From Caedimonas varicaedens (GTDB lineage Bacteria > Pseudomonadota > Alphaproteobacteria > Caedimonadales > Caedimonadaceae): DNA of 24,481 bases. Within the stretch, counting starts at the first letter, position 1. Each line of letters starts with the position of its first letter. The notes under the pieces are model-generated. The model saw only the letters and a program-made list of their open reading frames with translations, made no database searches and was not told the DNA's origin. The DNA is taken from assembly GCA_001192655.1 (NCBI GenBank), contig BBVC01000015.1:1-24481 (forward strand), given 5' to 3'. A program made the translations under genes and the position numbers. Shown one piece after another: positions 11,403 to 24,481 of this stretch.

Positions 11403-12932
11403 ATGGAGTGTTGGATATTGGTTGTTAAAAATAAAATACGAGCCTTTATTTTAGGGGCGCTTATACTTTCATTTCTCAATGAAATAAACGCTTCTGATCT
11501 CGAAGAATACAAGTCTCAAGCAAAAAACGCTTCCGTTATCGTATATGGAAAATCACAAGATGGTGAGACGTATGTTTTACTAGCCCATGATAGAAGAGGA
11601 TTTTGGACTCCACCGGGCGGAAAAAGAGAAGCCAACCAATCAATTTTAGATACCGCAGCAGCAGAACTTTATGAAGAAACTGCCGCTTTTGATCTTTTTA
11701 ATCCCTCTAGAATAAAGCCTCTTTTGAAAAAACAACCGTTAAAAAGCGTTTTTAAATATAACGGACATACCGATTTATTTGCATTAAATATTGGGGATCA
11801 AATCGATCAATGTAAAAATATATCTCATAATTATAAAGAACGAGTTAAAGGAAAAAAGCACTCTTTTGATGAAATGAATAACTGGAAACTCTGCAAGGCA
11901 AATGATCTATTTAATTCACTTAAAGCGCATCCTCATACAGTAAACCAAGATACAATCCTTAATAAAATTGGTAAGTTGCCAAAATACGTTTTTAATAGTC
12001 TTTGGAGTTTTTACAATAACGGCTCTTTAGAAAATTTGATGAAAACGTCAACTATTTTATTAAGTCAAAAACAACAGAAGCAAAAAGAGCAAGAGATTGA
12101 TGCCTTTCTTTCTTCCCCGGAACGTCAGGCAATGCTCCGCAAAAATCAGAAAGAATTCTTCAAGCATCAACCAGAAGATTTTTTTGGGAAGCAACCAAAA
12201 AAGAAACAGACCCAAATAAAAGCGCCAGTAGCGCAGAAAGCAAAAACCTCTGCGCAGAAGAAAGCAGATGATGCAGCGCGTCAGTTAGCTGCGCAGAAGA
12301 AGAAAGCAGATGATGCGGCACGTCAGTTAGCTGCGCAGAAGAAGAAAGCAGATGATGCGGTACGTCAGTCCCACTTAGTCGCACAGCAGAAGAAAGCAGA
12401 TGATGCGGTACGTCAGTCCCACTTAGTCGCACAGCAGAAGAAAGCAGATGATGCGGTACGTCAGTCTCACTTAGTCGCACAGCAGAAGAAAGCAGATGAT
12501 GCGGTACGTCAGTCCCACTTAGTCGCACAGCAGAAGAAAGCAGATGATGCGGTACGTCAGTCTCACTTAGTCGCACAGCAGAAGAAAGCAGATGATGCAG
12601 CGCGTCAGTTAGCTGCGCAGAAGAAGAAAGTAGATGATGAAGTGCGCCAGAAGCAGGCTCAATTAGCTCAATTAGCCACACAGAAGAAGAAAGCCCAGGC
12701 AGTAGCAGCGCAGAGAGCAGCGGCACAAAAGGCAAGAACATTGAAGGCAGCTGCACTGAAGAAAGCCCAGGCAGTAGCAGCGCAGAGAGCAGCGGCACAA
12801 AAGGCAAGAACATTGAAGGCAGCTGCACTGAAGAAAGCCCAGGCAGTAGCGGCACAGAGGAAGGCAAAAGCATTGAAGAAAGCCCAGGCAGTAGCGGCAC
12901 AGAGGAAGGCAAAAGCATTGAAGAAAGCATAA
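11403..12932 (+). CDS. signal-peptide protein with a Nudix-hydrolase-like domain and a long C-terminal Lys/Ala/Gln/Asp tandem-repeat region
   Basis: The 509-aa ORF has N-terminal KNKIRAFILGALILSFLNEINA/SD (signal-like). PPGGKREANQSILDTAAAELYEETAA fits the Nudix box GX5EX7REUXEEXGU, except R->A and the last G->A. From about aa 284 to the C-terminus there are two families of in-frame tandem repeats. Confidence 0.8.
   Translation: MECWILVVKNKIRAFILGALILSFLNEINASDLEEYKSQAKNASVIVYGKSQDGETYVLLAHDRRGFWTPPGGKREANQSILDTAAAELYEETAAFDLFNPSRIKPLLKKQPLKSVFKYNGHTDLFALNIGDQIDQCKNISHNYKERVKGKKHSFDEMNNWKLCKANDLFNSLKAHPHTVNQDTILNKIGKLPKYVFNSLWSFYNNGSLENLMKTSTILLSQKQQKQKEQEIDAFLSSPERQAMLRKNQKEFFKHQPEDFFGKQPKKKQTQIKAPVAQKAKTSAQKKADDAARQLAAQKKKADDAARQLAAQKKKADDAVRQSHLVAQQKKADDAVRQSHLVAQQKKADDAVRQSHLVAQQKKADDAVRQSHLVAQQKKADDAVRQSHLVAQQKKADDAARQLAAQKKKVDDEVRQKQAQLAQLATQKKKAQAVAAQRAAAQKARTLKAAALKKAQAVAAQRAAAQKARTLKAAALKKAQAVAAQRKAKALKKAQAVAAQRKAKALKKA
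12252..12677 (+). repeat. in-frame tandem repeat family 1 (nine units; 39/42/48/63 bp)
   Basis: Units start at 12252, 12291, 12333, 12381, 12429, 12477, 12525, 12573 and 12615. The five 48-bp units (12333-12572) encode AQ(K/Q)KKADDAVRQSHLV; the four from 12381 onward differ only by a synonymous TCC/TCT, while the first (12333) also differs in its first three codons. The 42-bp variants encode AQKKKADDAARQLA. Confidence 0.95.
12687..12920 (+). repeat. in-frame tandem repeat family 2 (2 x 72 bp, then 2 x 45 bp)
   Basis: 12687-12758 and 12759-12830 encode KKAQAVAAQRAAAQKARTLKAAAL. 12831-12875 and 12876-12920 encode KKAQAVAAQRKAKAL. Within each pair the copies are identical by eye. Confidence 0.95.
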
Positions 12933-17946: not shown

Positions 17947-18161
17947 GATTTTCCAATTGATAAGGTGGACAATATGTAACGATGTGTCAGACATACAAAA
18001 AATTTCTCTCCTAGGTCAAGTCCTATCCATCTGATGGATGTTACTTTGATGAATTTATAAACATTCTATTTTTCTTTTGAAAATATTTCTAAAACTCCTT
18101 AAAGTTATAATAATTGCTCAATAGATATTTATTAAAATTAAATAAAAAACAGGGGACGAGC

Positions 18162-19700
18162 TTGAAAAAAAATATTAACTGCCTTCTGCTCGTCCTCTTT
18201 TTTTTCCTCTCTTTTCTTCCCCTGGCACAAGGCAAGGAATTAAAACAGAATGTCTTGCGTGGGGGATGGTACCTTTGGGATCCCTATCAATTCATTGAAA
18301 AAGGTCAAGGATATACTCAATTAAACGGTTTGGATATCAATTTGGAGAGAGCCATTGCGAAGCATGCCGGCTATGAAATTCACTTCGAACAAGTGGCATG
18401 GAAACAACATCTCGCCGATCTTGCGGCGGGAACGCGAGATATTGCTGCCGGCGCTACCTACACTCCTCAACGTGAAAAATTTGCTTATTTTTCAGAACCC
18501 TACCGGGAAGAAAGCAACAGCCTGTTTACTCTTAAGCAATCTACAAAAAAACTTATATTTTCGAATGCTGATGAGTTCCTTGAAAAAGTCAAAAATACAA
18601 AATTCAAGTTGGGTGTTGTTGATGGATACGTGTATGTCGATCCCAAAATAAATGCTTTTATCGCTAATCCCGAAAATCGCCCCCAAATCTTTCCTGTCGA
18701 TAATACTTACGATAACCTTGAAAAACTATCAAACGGAGAAATTGATGGATTCCTCGCAGACCGCATTGACGGAGCAACAGCCTCCTGGCGTTCAAATTAC
18801 CGTGAAAAAATCACTGAGCAAGTCATTGGCAGCGTCCCGATTCATCTTATGTTCAGCAAAAAAACAATGACACCTGAAATTGTTGCCGCCTTCAATAAAG
18901 CCATACAACAGGTCAAAAGTTCAGGTGAATACGATTCAATCGTACGTTCTTATCTGTTCCCTATCCTCTTGATGCAAACTATAGATCGTGATTGGTTCAC
19001 TGTCATTGATATCATTGGAACAGTTGCCTTTGCCATCTCAGGGTTGATTATTGCCTATCGTGAACGGGCGAGTTTCTTTAAGGCAACACTTTTGGCAGCT
19101 CTTCCGGCAGTAGGCGGTGGAATAATTCGCGACCTCATTGCCGGACGCAGTCCCATAGGAGTTTTAAGAACACCTATCTATATCATTGCTATTCTTTTAA
19201 CGATTTTAGTCGCTTATATTCTGATTCACTTAGGTGCGTTGTTTTTTTCCCGTCTACAGAAAAAAATAGCGAAACAAGTTATCGTGCCACAACATGCAAA
19301 AAAGTTGAGCTTATTTATTGATATTTTTGATGCTTTGGGATTGGCCGCTTTTACCGTTATTGGCGTCACGGTGGCTTTTTCGTCCAAAAGTGACCCTCTA
19401 TGGTTGTGGGGACCCATTTTTGCGGTTATTACAGGCGTGGGGGGTGGTATTGCCCGCGATTTGCTTCGAGATGACGGCATTATCTGGGCACTGAAAGGAG
19501 AATTCTACGCTGAGGTTCCCTTTATCTGGGGAATGTTGCTGACTTCCTACCTTGTGCTGGATAAAAGATATTCTTCCCCTGAAGTTATTTTTTATGCTGT
19601 TGTTTTTACCTTGATAGGGGGGTTTCTGACCCGCTTGCTCATTATTTGGTTCCAGATAAAACCACCCTATTTCCGGCCAATCATCGAAGAAAATAAATAG
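18162..19700 (+). CDS. fusion protein: signal peptide + family-3 (amino-acid-type) solute-binding domain + TRIC/UPF0126 (YadS/YicG-like) 7-TM channel-like domain
   Basis: One uninterrupted ORF. The N-terminal half has SBP_bac_3 features (GLDINLERAIAKHAGYEIHFEQVAWKQHLADLAAGTRDIAAGATYTPQREKFAYFSEPY, KLGVVDGYVY, GEIDGFLADRIDG). The C-terminal ~240 aa have the two UPF0126 repeats with Gly-rich motifs AVGGGIIRDLIAG and GVGGGIARDLLRDD. The preferred start is TTG 18162 (LKKNINCLLLVLFFFLSFLPLAQG) with GGGGA 5 nt upstream; the track start is TTG 18114. Confidence 0.8.
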   Translation: MKKNINCLLLVLFFFLSFLPLAQGKELKQNVLRGGWYLWDPYQFIEKGQGYTQLNGLDINLERAIAKHAGYEIHFEQVAWKQHLADLAAGTRDIAAGATYTPQREKFAYFSEPYREESNSLFTLKQSTKKLIFSNADEFLEKVKNTKFKLGVVDGYVYVDPKINAFIANPENRPQIFPVDNTYDNLEKLSNGEIDGFLADRIDGATASWRSNYREKITEQVIGSVPIHLMFSKKTMTPEIVAAFNKAIQQVKSSGEYDSIVRSYLFPILLMQTIDRDWFTVIDIIGTVAFAISGLIIAYRERASFFKATLLAALPAVGGGIIRDLIAGRSPIGVLRTPIYIIAILLTILVAYILIHLGALFFSRLQKKIAKQVIVPQHAKKLSLFIDIFDALGLAAFTVIGVTVAFSSKSDPLWLWGPIFAVITGVGGGIARDLLRDDGIIWALKGEFYAEVPFIWGMLLTSYLVLDKRYSSPEVIFYAVVFTLIGGFLTRLLIIWFQIKPPYFRPIIEENK

Positions 19701-20663: not shown

Positions 20664-20740
20664 GGGCCTGTAGTTCAGTTGGTTAGAACGCACCGCTCAT
20701 AACGGTGTTGTCGCAGGTTCGAGTCCTGCCGGGCCCACCA
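20664..20740 (+). tRNA. tRNA with CAU anticodon (elongator tRNA-Met, or tRNA-Ile2 if lysidine-modified); CCA encoded
   Basis: Hand-folded cloverleaf: acceptor GGGCCTG/CGGGCCC, D stem GTTC/GAAC, anticodon stem CACCG/CGGTG with loop CTCATAA, 5-nt variable loop, T stem GCAGG/CCTGC with TTCGAGT, discriminator A, CCA. Position 1-72 is paired and the anticodon stem lacks the GGG/CCC run, so it is not an initiator. Confidence 0.9.
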
Positions 20741-20804: not shown

Positions 20805-21422
20805 ATGGGGAACTTATCCAAACAACTATTTTTGTGTTTATTATTTATTTTATGTAACCAAACTTTAGTCAAAGCGGGAGATATAGAACGTCTACAGAAA
20901 ATGCTGGATACACAAAAACGTTCTAATCCCCTGGATCTTCCCAATCATGATTTCCGCGCTCAATCCTTTGATGCTCAAGAGACGCTATCTTTTGTGAACT
21001 CAAATTTTCAAAATGGTAATTTCTCAGGAACTGTTGATAATCCCAAACGGATTAACAATATTGATTTTTCAGAATGTAACCTTGGAAATGCGAATTTTTC
21101 TTATTGTATCATTACGCATTGCAAATTTAACGATGCTCAATTAAAAGGCGTTAAATTTGAGGGATCAACAATAAAATTTACCTCTTTTCGCAGAGCTATT
21201 ATGCCTGAAGCAAATTTAAATCTCACCCAGCAAGAATCTGTGGGTTATGACGAAGCCAATATTACCTGTTCAACATGGGCAGGTGCTGATCTATTTCGCG
21301 TCAGTTTTACACGCACAGATGAACGAGGGATGGATAAGACAGACTTAAAAGAAAGAGACTGTTCTCATGAATACGCAGTGACAACAGGATTGTTTGATTC
21401 TTTCAGTTGTAAGAAAAAATAA
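20805..21422 (+). CDS. pentapeptide-repeat protein with N-terminal signal peptide
   Basis: The 205-aa ORF begins MGNLSKQLFLCLLFILCNQTLVKA/GD. The centre, NFQNGNFSGT...IDFSECNLGNANFSYCIITHCKFNDAQLKGVKFEGSTIKFTSFRRAIMPEANLNL...ANITCSTWAGADLFRVSFTRTD, shows the 5-residue A(D/N)LXX periodicity. Confidence 0.8.
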   Translation: MGNLSKQLFLCLLFILCNQTLVKAGDIERLQKMLDTQKRSNPLDLPNHDFRAQSFDAQETLSFVNSNFQNGNFSGTVDNPKRINNIDFSECNLGNANFSYCIITHCKFNDAQLKGVKFEGSTIKFTSFRRAIMPEANLNLTQQESVGYDEANITCSTWAGADLFRVSFTRTDERGMDKTDLKERDCSHEYAVTTGLFDSFSCKKK

Positions 21423-21447
21423 AAGTTCCGAAAAAGAGAGGAACAAA

Positions 21448-22269
21448 GTGCCTGAATTGCCTGAAGTAGAAATTGTTTGTCGCGAAATGCGACAAGCTCT
21501 TTTAACGCAAACAATTCAAAAAGTAGAGGTAAGAGAACGTCGTCTGAGATTTCTCATCCCTCCTGCCTTTGAGAAAAATCTTGAACATTTAACAATTTCC
21601 TCTCTTCAGCGTCGCGCCAAATATATTCTTGTGGGGTTTCAGGGAACTTCTGATACACTCGTGATTCACTTAGGAATGTCCGGACGTATTTCTCTTCTTT
21701 CTTCTGCTGAGTCTACCTTATGCCATAAACACGAACATGTTATTTTTACCTTCACGTCAGGAAAAGAAATGCGTTTTTTTGATCCGCGCCGTTTTGGGTC
21801 AATGGTTCTGATGACAACGCCAACATCTCTTTTCCATAAAATAGGTCCTGAACCCTTGTCTGAGGACTTTAGTGTAATTACGTTAAAAGACAGCCTTTTA
21901 AACAAAAAAAGTTCGATTAAATCAGCGCTTCTCAATCAGCATATAATCGCCGGACTTGGAAATATTTATGTTTCCGAGGCGCTGCACAAAGCACAGATTC
22001 ATCCCGAACGATTGGCAAAAGATTTAAATCTCTATGAATGCGATGCTTTGGTTTCAGCGATTAAAAAAATCTTGCAAAGGGCTATTGCTGCAGGAGGTTC
22101 TACTTTGCGAGATCATCAACGTACCAACGGAGAAGCTGGCTCTTTTCAAAAACAGTTCGCCGTCTATAATCAGGAAGGAAAGAATTGTCCGAACTGTCAG
22201 GAAAGTGTGATTGAGCGCATCCTTCAGGCTAACCGATCGACTTACTTTTGTAAAAAATGCCAGCACTAG
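21448..22269 (+). CDS. mutM: formamidopyrimidine-DNA glycosylase
   Basis: GTG 21448 gives (M)PELPEVE. Fpg needs Pro as the residue after the initiator Met, and GAGAGG lies 6 nt upstream. The H2TH region and C-terminal zinc finger CPNC...CKKCQ are present. The track start 21394 would bury the catalytic Pro. Confidence 0.93.
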   Translation: MPELPEVEIVCREMRQALLTQTIQKVEVRERRLRFLIPPAFEKNLEHLTISSLQRRAKYILVGFQGTSDTLVIHLGMSGRISLLSSAESTLCHKHEHVIFTFTSGKEMRFFDPRRFGSMVLMTTPTSLFHKIGPEPLSEDFSVITLKDSLLNKKSSIKSALLNQHIIAGLGNIYVSEALHKAQIHPERLAKDLNLYECDALVSAIKKILQRAIAAGGSTLRDHQRTNGEAGSFQKQFAVYNQEGKNCPNCQESVIERILQANRSTYFCKKCQH

Positions 22270-22358: not shown

Positions 22359-22435
22359 GCGCCCGTAGCTCAGCTGGATAGAGCGTTGCCCTCCGGAGGC
22401 AAAGGCCAGGGGTTCGAATCCCTTCGGGCGCGCCA
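22359..22435 (+). tRNA. tRNA-Arg (anticodon CCG), CCA encoded
   Basis: Hand-folded: acceptor GCGCCCG/CGGGCGC, D stem GCTC/GAGC, anticodon stem TTGCC/GGCAA with loop CTCCGGA, T stem AGGGG/CCCTT with TTCGAAT, discriminator G, CCA. Confidence 0.92.
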
Positions 22436-23043: not shown

Positions 23044-24481
23044 ATGGCTCAATCTGTAATTACAATTAAAGATTCTCTGGGAAACATGATTGCTTCGGGT
23101 ACTTCTACAGCAGATTTGATATTAAGCCTTAAAGGCAACAATGCCGTTTTTGGGTTTAGTGGAGATGATATTCTGCTGGCAGGCAATGGTAGTGATTATC
23201 TTTATGGGGGTGCGGGGAATGATATTCTCTATGGCGGCGCCGGAAATGATATTCTCTATGGCGGCGCCGGAAATGATATCCTTTTTGGAGGGGCAGGCTC
23301 TGATCGACTTTATGGCGGATCAGGCAATGACATCCTCAGTGGCGGGAGCAAGGGTGATTTTATAGACCCCGGGATAGGAAATGATCTTGTTGCGGGTGGA
23401 AGCGGCAATGATGTATTTGTCCATAATATCAAAGAGAATATTGGAAGTACGGATTACTATCTCGGAGGCGGCGGGCAGGATACACTTGTCCTGGCTGTGG
23501 ATACAATTGCGCAAGAGAACTTTATTCTCAATAACATTAAACCTGTATTTACAAGCAATTTTGCGGGCACAAGTAAACTGTTCGATTTCTCCTTATACAC
23601 CAGCTTGAGCAGCCCTGTCGGACTTATGGATCTTTCCATCCGGGGATTTAATACCTTACTCGTCAATTTAAACCCTGTTGTCGTCAATGACAGTGGTACG
23701 CTCATTGTGTCACGCGTTAACCCTGTCGCGGATACGCTGAGTCTTAATATTTTGAGCAATGACAGTGATCCCGATAAAAGCAATTCTAATGATATCCTTC
23801 CTGGTGATCATATCGCCGGAAAAGTTTTAGTTGTAGGTGAGATCCAAAATGTCTCTGTTTCTGGTGCAGGAGCTTCTCAAGTTCTTTCTATTAGCGAAGT
23901 TGCTTTTGATCCTTTTATGGGAGAAATGGACAAATTTACCCTTCACACAGCAGCAGGAGATGCGACACTACTGATCAAATCAGACGGCACGGTTACTCTC
24001 AGCACGAATAATGTATTTGATAATATTTTGGGTAATGTGGATATTAATATTCAATACACAGCTGATGACCAGCTGGGAGGTCGTAATAGTGCTACCGCTG
24101 CTCTGCATGTCATTACAGACAGACCGCCTATAGCCCTGGACGACAGCGGTCAAATGAAAGAAGATACGAATACTGTCGCCAAACCCAATCCTCTTTTGGG
24201 AAATATCTTAAGCAATGATAGCGATCCCGATGCGGGAGATGTTTTAAAAGTCATTTCTGTCAAGGGAGTGGCCGGAAACGTGGGCGTGGATGTTGCCGGA
24301 ACTTACGGAATCCTCCACCTCAATATGGATGGAACTTATAAATATACTCTTAACAATAGCTTGCCTTCTGTACAATCTTTGGCAGAAGGACAGCAGGTTC
24401 ATGACATTTTTGCCTATACGATCAGCGATGGCCATGGAGGAACAGCATCAGCCAATCTTGATATGACTGTTATCGGCACGA
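23044..24481 (+). CDS. large RTX (GGxGxD nonapeptide) / VCBS-cadherin-like repeat protein, 5' part only (ORF continues past the right edge)
   Basis: Hand translation from ATG 23044 (GGAGG 5 nt upstream) is open for 479 codons to the window end. It begins MAQSVITIKD. It then has about 9 calcium-binding nonapeptides (GNGSDYLYGGAGNDILYGGAGNDILYGGAGNDILFGGAGSDRLYGGSGNDILSGG...). Two units of VCBS-like type follow (..VVNDSGT...LNILSNDSDPD... and ..ALDDSGQMKEDT...GNILSNDSDPDAGDVLKVISV...GTYKYTLNN...L.EGQQVHDIFAYTISDGHGGTASANLDMTVIG). Confidence 0.85.
   Translation, partial: MAQSVITIKDSLGNMIASGTSTADLILSLKGNNAVFGFSGDDILLAGNGSDYLYGGAGNDILYGGAGNDILYGGAGNDILFGGAGSDRLYGGSGNDILSGGSKGDFIDPGIGNDLVAGGSGNDVFVHNIKENIGSTDYYLGGGGQDTLVLAVDTIAQENFILNNIKPVFTSNFAGTSKLFDFSLYTSLSSPVGLMDLSIRGFNTLLVNLNPVVVNDSGTLIVSRVNPVADTLSLNILSNDSDPDKSNSNDILPGDHIAGKVLVVGEIQNVSVSGAGASQVLSISEVAFDPFMGEMDKFTLHTAAGDATLLIKSDGTVTLSTNNVFDNILGNVDINIQYTADDQLGGRNSATAALHVITDRPPIALDDSGQMKEDTNTVAKPNPLLGNILSNDSDPDAGDVLKVISVKGVAGNVGVDVAGTYGILHLNMDGTYKYTLNNSLPSVQSLAEGQQVHDIFAYTISDGHGGTASANLDMTVIGT
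23229..23282 (+). repeat. perfect 27-bp tandem duplication inside the RTX block
   Basis: AATGATATTCTCTATGGCGGCGCCGGA occurs at 23229-23255 and again at 23256-23282, one nonapeptide unit each. Confidence 0.95.

Follow-up and report, generated by a model that had tools for sequence, protein, structure and literature searches.

A family-3 solute-binding domain fused to a TRIC/UPF0126 membrane domain in Caedimonas varicaedens: a candidate binding-domain-assisted uptake pore

The fusion gene and its family

We analysed a stretch of 24,481 nucleotides from Caedimonas varicaedens (contig BBVC01000015.1 of assembly GCA_001192655.1, positions 1 to 24,481), which is referred to below as the window. This report concerns one gene on its forward strand. 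The product combines, in this order, a signal peptide, a family-3 solute-binding (SBP_bac_3) domain, a 21-residue helical linker and a two-repeat TRIC/UPF0126 domain with seven transmembrane (TM) segments. In the window the gene is monocistronic, being divergent from a gene of the SBP_bac_5 family and convergent with dapB. The coordinates of all features are collected in Table 1.

The listing of open reading frames (ORFs) contains a single uninterrupted frame from 18114 to 19700 (+), which would give 528 amino acids (aa) from a TTG codon. The TTG at 18162 is the likelier start, because a Shine-Dalgarno-like hexamer lies upstream of it, the length of the resulting product matches that of the database protein P0001 and the N-terminus then reads as a classical signal peptide (MKKNINCLLLVLFFFLSFLPLAQG, with predicted cleavage before KE). 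P0001 has 512 aa, is 98% identical to the fusion and covers 100% of the 512-aa product. A first reading of this DNA, made from the letters alone and called the sequence-only reading here, had also placed the start at 18162 and is backed by these three observations. Upstream of the gene lies a weak sigma-70-like site (18077-18105); the frequency of such sites is no higher here than in shuffled sequence.

Profile searches support each of the two domains, which the sequence-only reading had described as present and complete. Pfam assigns SBP_bac_3 (PF00497) with an E-value of 3e-23 and 82.4 bits against a cut-off of 26.4, and Gly_transporter/UPF0126 (PF03458) in two stretches with an E-value of 5.6e-29 and 100.3 bits against a cut-off of 23.5, so that both lie far above their gathering scores. 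In NCBIfam the N-terminal half is matched by models of amino-acid ABC binding proteins and aa 298-520 of the 528-aa frame by PRK10578, a YicG/YadS-type model. A sequence search of the PDB yields the same division: aa 52-265 match SBD2 of GlnPQ (6h30, the best match), AncCDT-1, AncQR and ArtJ, and aa 277-505 match the prokaryotic TRIC channels 5h36, 5wuf, 5h35/5wtr and 5wuc with E-values from 8e-14 to 3e-10.

An AlphaFold2 (AF2) monomer model of the fusion was built from a 120-sequence alignment and has a mean pLDDT of 91.2 and a pTM of 0.82. The modelled chain passes from a two-lobed alpha/beta domain through a helix at 256-274 and a break of two residues to the seven long helices of the membrane domain (277-300, 305-327, 339-366, 375-407, 413-434, 451-466 and 473-496). 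The linker runs almost straight into the invariant pair W278-F279 at the start of TM1. When compared by Foldseek, the N-terminal half reaches target-normalised TM-scores of 0.78-0.85 to amino-acid binding proteins (ArtJ, LAO, GlnBP, AncQR and others). The second-best structural match is the histidine-kinase sensor domain 3h7m (target-normalised TM-score 0.85), and the ligand-binding cores of the ionotropic glutamate receptors (iGluRs) AvGluR1 (4io2) and GluD2 (2v3u) are also among the matches. No PDB entry spans both halves of the fusion, the query-normalised TM-score being at most 0.40.

Table 1. Features of the fusion gene and its product, and of the DNA around it and around related loci. 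Residue numbers refer to the 512-aa product.
Feature	Position	Strand	Basis or remark
Shine-Dalgarno-like AGGGGA hexamer	18151..18156	+	5 nt before TTG start; read from sequence
Complete CDS of the SBP-TRIC fusion, 512 aa plus stop	18162..19700	+	ORF listing, Pfam/NCBIfam, homologue P0001
Sec-type signal peptide, aa 1-24, ...LAQG/KE	18162..18233	+	predicted cleavage, from sequence pattern
Periplasmic family-3 solute-binding (Venus-flytrap) domain, aa 25-255	18234..18926	+	PF00497, PDB sequence matches, Foldseek
Conserved helical linker, aa 256-276, motif Y..P.LL.Q	18927..18989	+	AF2 helix 256-274, conservation
TRIC/UPF0126 repeat 1 (TM1-TM3), pore Phe F290, GGGIIRD (19113-19133)	18990..19241	+	PF03458 first stretch, PDB matches, YadS/YicG alignment
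Variable Lys-rich cytoplasmic loop between repeats, aa 361-385, 6 K+R	19242..19316	+	alignment; 10% identity
TRIC/UPF0126 repeat 2 plus TM7 (TM4-TM7), F397, PLWLWGP (19395-19415), GGGIARD (19440-19460)	19317..19661	+	Pfam, PDB matches, alignment
R104 codon	18471..18473	+	aligns with alpha-carboxylate Arg R77 (HisJ/LAO), R75 (GlnH); invariant
D200 codon	18759..18761	+	aligns with alpha-ammonium Asp D161 (HisJ/LAO), D157 (GlnH); invariant
G97			aligns with S70 (HisJ/LAO), G68 (GlnH); backbone/hydroxyl contact; conserved
T99			aligns with S72 (HisJ/LAO), T70 (GlnH); backbone/hydroxyl contact; conserved
W39			aligns with Y14 (HisJ/LAO), F13 (GlnH); aromatic sandwich; mostly W
W80			aligns with F52 (LAO; L in HisJ), F50 (GlnH); aromatic sandwich; invariant
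W36			aligns with D11 (HisJ/LAO), D10 (GlnH); ligand side-chain reading; invariant
Y/F156			aligns with S/T120; ligand side-chain reading; Y or F
Y158			aligns with Q122; ligand side-chain reading; mostly Y
Tandem fusion duplicates	L034:4263-7443; L084:3496-6602		
gcvH	L084:3061-3456	-	divergently upstream of tandem fusion pair
dCache_1-cyclase loci	L036:4725-6974; L037:6260-8509; L038:7425-9722; L042:7443-9680		downstream of fusion
HAMP-MCP chemoreceptor	L064:1483-3246		88 nt downstream of fusion
Amino-acid decarboxylase	L057:7457-9010		2 nt downstream of fusion
AA_permease_2 (APC-type) protein, 650 aa	3653-5605	+	between clpB and acetyl-CoA synthetase
NUDIX-domain ORF, 509 aa	11403-12932	+	C-terminal half consists of tandem repeats
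Repeats of NUDIX ORF	12254-12609		unit 48 nt x 7.7
	12686-12859		unit 72 nt x 2.4
	12825-12928		unit 45 nt x 2.3
Family-5 solute-binding protein, 618 aa	16138-17994	-	divergent from fusion gene
tRNA-Met (CAT)	20664-20740		
Pentapeptide-repeat protein, 205 aa	20805-21422	+	between tRNAs
Fpg/MutM	21394-22269		
tRNA-Arg (CCG)	22359-22435		
RTX-type nonapeptide repeats	about 23110-23400	+	LYGGAGNDI x3, then GGxGxD units
27-nt repeat	23199-23279		within RTX-type frame

The architecture is found in many other genomes. A protein search gave at least 551 matches, 120 of which are listed. All 120 carry both PF00497 and PF03458; they measure 450-582 aa, are 41-98% identical to the query and cover 88-100% of it. 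They stem from many independent assemblies, several of which are complete genomes. The sequence-only reading had seen one ORF with neither a stop nor a frameshift at the junction (about 18927-18990), and the same junction is indeed present in 119 independent full-length homologues. When each species was represented by a single genome, a relative turned up at 527 loci at least. The lineages concerned include Paracaedimonas/Caedibacter, other Holosporales, Rickettsiaceae, Candidatus (Ca.) Megaera and many other Alpha-, Beta- and Gammaproteobacteria, and further to Verrucomicrobiota, Kiritimatiellia, Planctomycetota, Myxococcota, Chloroflexia and Vulcanimicrobiota. Among the loci listed, the best genomic match is a Caedimonas metagenome-assembled genome (MAG) with 78% amino-acid identity. 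An exhaustive profile search of 1.84 billion representatives yielded 683 clusters (50% identity) at E<=1e-30, and each of the best 150 of these either spans both domains or is a shorter sequence matching part of the profile.

Conservation follows the domains. Mean pairwise identity amounts to 44% in the binding domain, 48% in the linker and 50-51% in the membrane domain, and is low in the signal peptide (15%) and in the cytoplasmic loop between the repeats. Measured against the two closest genomic homologues, nonsynonymous divergence (pN) is far below saturated synonymous divergence (pS) in all three conserved parts, with a pN of 0.03-0.13 in the linker. Judged by this pattern, binding domain, linker and membrane domain are under strong purifying selection. 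An artefact of assembly or gene calling, by which a sequencing error in the junction would have joined two neighbouring genes, can be regarded as excluded: the continuous architecture of all 120 listed homologues from independent assemblies, the make-up of the best 150 of the 683 clusters and the conservation of the junction region, itself under purifying selection, all speak against this artefact, and nothing was found in its favour.

Names given to the family in databases are automatic ('TRIC cation channel family protein', 'transporter substrate-binding domain-containing protein'). Full-text literature searches found no paper on the architecture, in agreement with the statement of the sequence-only reading that no characterised SBP-TRIC fusion was known to it. 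The novelty which that reading implied has to be toned down, as the architecture is not rare (hundreds of species) and has already been annotated automatically. What is new is the lack of characterisation rather than the lack of a prior sighting, and the architecture is not unique to this genome. Overall, the fusion is a widespread, conserved and uncharacterised combination of domains rather than something categorically new.

A sub-branch of the family is longer. Twelve of the best 150 of the 683 clusters (P0122, P0123, P0130, P0134, P0140, P0155, P0191, P0205, P0216, P0218, P0220 and P0236) have 689-761 aa, with approximately 195 extra cytoplasmic residues at the C-terminus. Sequence searches of Pfam and the PDB gave nothing significant for this extension. 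In an AF2 model of the long form, built from ten sequences (pLDDT 90.8, pTM 0.86), it consists of six helices and matches PhoU (4q25) with TM-scores of 0.80/0.75 and 1t72, 1sum and 2i0m with 0.65-0.73; fold comparison also brings up the cytosolic helical domain of ALMT1. As modelled, the extension is a PhoU-like six-helix domain. Domains of this kind are regulators of, or appendages to, transporters. Its presence fits a regulated transport protein and is equally compatible with an uptake pore or a gated channel. The fusion protein of the window is without it.

Ligand pocket and membrane pore

The binding site was read by aligning the fusion family with E. coli HisJ, LAO (ArgT) and GlnH, the ligand contacts of which we take to be established. 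R104 and D200, the counterparts of the residues that hold the alpha-carboxylate and the alpha-ammonium group, are invariant in the 120-sequence alignment. The other aligned positions are given in Table 1, and the LAO site mutants D11A, D30A, S70A, S72A and Q122A are among the structural matches of the fusion. According to the alignment the binding domain keeps the amino-acid clamp, and its side-chain pocket is crowded and aromatic (Trp/Tyr). Given a clamp that is kept and bulky aromatics that fill the side-chain pocket, the predicted ligand is small and amino-acid-like, with little room for a side chain. Glycine-selective iGluR subunits exclude larger ligands sterically by bulky aromatic residues. 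By analogy with betaine or ectoine binders, the aromatic residues of the pocket may alternatively form a cage around a cation of the quaternary or delocalised kind.

Some genomes have more than one copy. Caedibacter sp. 38-128 and isolate SZAS-1 each carry two unlinked paralogues (the within-genome pairs compared are L008/L053 and L061/L065), and tandem duplicates are present at the loci L034 and L084, the latter with gcvH on the opposite strand. Paralogues and tandem duplicates all keep R104, D200 and W80 and differ at positions 39, 99 and 156. This variation suggests specificity tuning within one ligand class.

Both Gly-rich GGGxxRD motifs reported by the sequence-only reading are present in the membrane domain, as GGGIIRD at aa 318-324 and GGGIARD at aa 427-433. 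In the 120-sequence alignment G318, G319, R323, D324, G428, R432 and D433 are invariant. Of the two pore phenylalanines, which both align with Phe of YadS, F290 is invariant and F397 is conserved in at least 90%; D390, E451 and R491 are likewise invariant or nearly so across the family. As far as alignment can tell, all features known to matter in prokaryotic TRICs are thus present, and invariant or nearly so, in the fusion family. RsTRIC and SsTRIC have a periplasmic N-terminus and a cytoplasmic C-terminus (Kasuya et al. 2016, PMC5143425). Such an N-out, C-in topology of seven helices agrees with the signal peptide and the exported N-terminal domain of the fusion, and the predicted cytoplasmic loops contain 12 Lys and Arg residues, the periplasmic ones 6. 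The sequence-only reading was therefore right in finding an N-out 7-TM topology suited to a periplasmic binding domain.

The prokaryotic TRICs (RsTRIC 5h36, SsTRIC 5h35/5wtr, SaTRIC 5wuc, 5wuf; YadS/YicG) have in common with the fusion two inverted 3-TM repeats plus TM7, the GGGxxRD kink in TM2 and TM5, the in-line Phe in TM1 and TM4 and the N-out/C-in orientation. The fusion differs by some 250 additional periplasmic residues at the N-terminus, which make up binding domain and linker. Alignment with E. coli YadS/YicG further reveals three features that are specific to the fused membrane domain: a conserved segment before TM1 (Y..P.LL.Q.....WF), which is absent from the stand-alone proteins; an insertion of two residues that gives PLWLWGP in the periplasmic turn between TM4 and TM5; and a Lys-rich cytoplasmic loop between the repeats that is longer than in stand-alone TRICs. 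P412 and W416, in the region of the PLWLWGP turn, do not vary even among the 21 most divergent members. Pre-TM1 segment and PLWLWGP would be the surfaces by which the binding domain communicates with the pore. A placement of the membrane domain in either the YadS or the YicG subgroup was considered and dropped, since BLAST identity, at 29-30% to both, does not discriminate between them.

Uptake pore, gated channel or sensor

The role of prokaryotic TRIC/UPF0126 proteins is unsettled: on the strength of structure and electrophysiology they are called K+ channels, on that of transposon fitness glycine transporters. The fusion provides the pore with a built-in, soluble and screenable ligand-binding domain, and so offers a direct handle on what TRIC/UPF0126 carries. 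The sequence-only reading had put a ligand-gated channel and a binding-domain-assisted transporter side by side, and the sequence is compatible with either. We tentatively prefer an uptake pore that is complete in itself, is assisted by its binding domain and takes up a small amino acid, for instance glycine. Once exported, the family-3 domain would sit on the periplasmic face of the TRIC/UPF0126 domain, presumably a trimer, and would be kept there by the short, rigid and conserved helix. It would capture a small alpha-amino acid, with glycine or a close relative as the leading candidate, and either hand this ligand to the membrane pore or open the pore for it. The ligand would then enter the cell down its gradient, with no ATPase and no separate permease. 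Three points in this are our inference: which ligand is bound, which way transport runs and that the ligand passes rather than a cation.

The preference for uptake stems from an agreement between the two halves of the fusion on the class of substrate. According to transposon-fitness data, five bacteria specifically require a stand-alone UPF0126 protein to utilise glycine (Price et al., bioRxiv 10.1101/072470), a finding to which PF03458 owes its Pfam name Gly_transporter, and a review of 2025 counts 11 bacteria with this link (PMC12173739); the pocket of the binding domain, in turn, is small and of the amino-acid type. We also count in favour of uptake that the two domains are complete and conserved together, that the linker with W278-F279 and the PLWLWGP turn lie where the binding domain would dock, and that divergence at pocket positions 39, 99 and 156 of the duplicates is what might be expected for diverging substrate specificity. 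Furthermore, the family is frequent in obligate intracellular, genome-reduced lineages that rely on amino acids of their hosts (Caedimonas, Paracaedimonas/Caedibacter, Holosporales, Rickettsiaceae, Ca. Megaera). ATPase-free uptake fits a host-dependent intracellular life, in which substrate is plentiful and can be trapped by metabolism. The prominence of the family in obligate intracellular symbionts (Holosporales, Rickettsiales) matters because nutrient uptake shapes host dependence there.

Gene context bears on the self-contained nature of the protein. All-against-all ORF clustering of 79 related loci found no conserved partner, the best non-self gene cluster being present in 8 loci, and the 117 immediate neighbours carry 158 Pfam families, none of which occurs in more than three neighbours or is enriched. 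The sequence-only reading had found no ABC permease or ATPase nearby; this is true of the whole 24.5-kb window, and across the 79 loci these components are never a conserved neighbour either. Pfam detects no DctQM/TctAB or DctP/TctC families in the fusion protein or its neighbours. Given the absence of a conserved neighbour, and of any ABC component in the window, the fusion protein evidently works without a dedicated partner. In four loci it is translationally coupled (-3 to +3 nt) to a downstream adenylate/guanylate cyclase of about 750 aa with a dCache_1 domain. These cyclases are orthologous, with 43-56% identity between lineages and 95% between the close MAGs L036 and L037, and are a possible signalling partner of the fusion in this subclade (L036/L037/L038/L042); the window has no such gene. 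Two further neighbours directly downstream are single cases, namely a HAMP-MCP chemoreceptor (L064, Halothiobacillaceae) and a decarboxylase of amino acids that depends on pyridoxal phosphate (L057, Marinomonas).

A number of observations weigh against glycine uptake. At gathering thresholds Rfam finds only two tRNAs in the window and no glycine riboswitch, and it gives no match upstream of the fusion gene in 11 diverse loci, so that the glycine-riboswitch link drawn by the sequence-only reading does not extend to the fusion in any of these places. Genes of glycine cleavage, searched by tblastn with GcvH, GcvP and part of GcvT, stand beside the fusion in just one of 82 loci (L084). Prokaryotic TRICs have a narrow water-filled pore in each protomer of the trimer; they conduct K+ and, in E. 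coli, mediate its uptake (PMC5143425, PMC5477506, PMC5401562), and this cation conductance, not amino-acid transport, is the only biochemistry on them. The link to glycine is genetic only and comes from stand-alone proteins that are about 30% identical to the membrane domain. In addition, a pore or uniporter cannot concentrate its substrate, which makes the benefit of a high-affinity binding domain less obvious than it is in ABC or TRAP systems. By analogy, the short, rigid and conserved linker may be more like the signal-transmitting linkers of the BvgS type than the flexible tethers of GlnPQ.

By sequence the fusion truly belongs to PF03458 as well as to PF00497, and it is neither an iGluR/GluR0, nor an ABC, nor a TRAP/TTT protein; its function would resemble GlnPQ/OpuA or TRAP if it transports, and GluR0 if it gates. 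Among uptake systems, the stand-alone UPF0126 proteins of the fitness-browser study (SO1319 and PGA1_c00920, for example) share PF03458 and the two-repeat layout with the fusion, and the substrate class that they suggest, a small amino acid, would match its binding domain; they have no binding domain, and their phenotype is genetic, transport never having been measured. GlnPQ (Lactococcus/Enterococcus) and OpuA resemble it in a signal peptide, a binding domain N-terminal to the membrane domain (of family 3 in GlnPQ) and a single covalent connection between the two. Unlike these, the fusion has a TRIC pore instead of a BPD_transp_1 permease, no ATPase and a linker that is conserved and helical rather than a flexible tether. 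TRAP/TTT systems share the concept of a periplasmic binding protein that serves a non-ABC membrane transporter, but their DctP/TctC binding proteins are usually separate, their membrane folds are unrelated and they are ion-coupled. If the ligand is indeed transported, the fusion would constitute a third kind of binding-protein-dependent uptake beside ABC and TRAP/TTT, in one polypeptide and without an ATPase.

The main rival, less probable and in our view doubtful, is an amino-acid-gated cation channel. Here closure of the clamshell would open or close the monomeric, K+-conducting pore of the TRIC trimer through the single rigid linker helix and PLWLWGP, so that an external amino-acid signal would be converted into a change in K+ flux or membrane potential. 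Prokaryotic TRICs do conduct K+ in bilayers and spheroplasts, a linker that is short, helical and as conserved as the domains suits mechanical coupling, and both the coupled dCache_1-cyclases (L036, L037, L038, L042) and the chemoreceptor (L064) hint at signalling; the PhoU-like domain of the sub-branch would suit a gated channel as well as an uptake pore. Nonetheless, K+ conduction by itself hardly accounts for the phenotypes of stand-alone UPF0126 proteins in glycine utilisation, the signalling neighbours occur in few of the 79 loci while the 117 other neighbours are without a trend, and a ligand-gated K+ leak has no evident role in obligate intracellular bacteria.

The mode of attachment also argues against gating. 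In iGluRs and GluR0 the pore is inserted between the two halves (S1 and S2) of the binding domain, which gives two mechanical connections. The fusion would share with these receptors an amino-acid clamshell and a cation-conducting pore in one polypeptide, but its binding domain is contiguous (aa 25-255), the pore is appended C-terminally with a single attachment point and no Lig_chan Pfam match is found. The pore itself has the fold of TRICs, presumably as a trimer in which every subunit holds its own pore, and not the tetrameric P-loop fold of K+ channels. The parallel to GluR0 and iGluRs proposed by the sequence-only reading is accordingly a loose one, as the pore is appended by one helix in the manner of GlnPQ/OpuA fusions or BvgS-type sensors. 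Should gating nevertheless turn out to be true, the family would be a new class of bacterial ligand-gated ion channels that had arrived independently at an iGluR-like design with another pore fold, and for the first time a physiological gating input of a prokaryotic TRIC would be known.

An improbable explanation is that the protein is a membrane-anchored sensor or regulator, in which the TRIC domain would mainly anchor the protein and relay the amino-acid signal to a partner such as the Cache-cyclase of some operons, with no physiologically relevant flux. SBP_bac_3 domains are common as sensor modules of kinases, cyclases and chemoreceptors, one such kinase domain (3h7m) ranks second among the structural matches, and a cyclase or chemoreceptor gene lies directly downstream in 5 loci. 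Venus-flytrap sensors (BvgS-type kinases, SBP_bac_3-GGDEF/kinase fusions, 3h7m) moreover have the family-3 domain and a continuous helix to the TM segment in common with the fusion. They differ in that the fusion has no kinase, cyclase or other cytoplasmic output domain, save the PhoU-like one in a minority, and that its membrane part is a complete and conserved pore. For a mere anchor one would not expect the pore features (GGGxxRD twice, F290, F397, D390, E451 and R491) to be kept across phyla, and most loci, the window included, are without a candidate partner.

Most unlikely of these functions is service to an ABC importer whose genes lie elsewhere in the genome, with the TRIC domain only tethering the binding domain like a lipoprotein anchor: orphan binding proteins do exist, the neighbouring SBP_bac_5 protein being one, but the 79 loci have no ABC permease or ATPase alongside the fusion, a highly conserved pore of 240 residues and seven helices is implausibly expensive as an anchor, and the fusion-specific motifs in periplasmic TRIC turns argue for contact between the two domains.

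Other genes and repeats of the window

The window has a GC content of about 40%. Together with its gene content (COX3, SURF1, M16 peptidase, dapB, clpB) and the 78% match of the fusion protein to a Caedimonas MAG, this points to an intracellular alphaproteobacterium of the Holosporales/Caedimonas kind. The SBP_bac_5 protein, divergent from the fusion gene, is an orphan of the oligopeptide type. The AA_permease_2 protein is long for its family, and its gene shows that the organism encodes a conventional carrier of amino acids, at least one, in the vicinity of the fusion. Other genes encode ClpB, acetyl-CoA synthetase, a HAD hydrolase, an M16 peptidase, SURF1 and COX3. The NUDIX-domain ORF is unusual in its repeat-built tail, and its tandem repeats cause a strong local AT skew (0.38). 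The pentapeptide-repeat protein is apparently secreted. The RTX-type frame likely belongs to a large secreted protein with calcium-binding repeats, which probably extends beyond position 24481.

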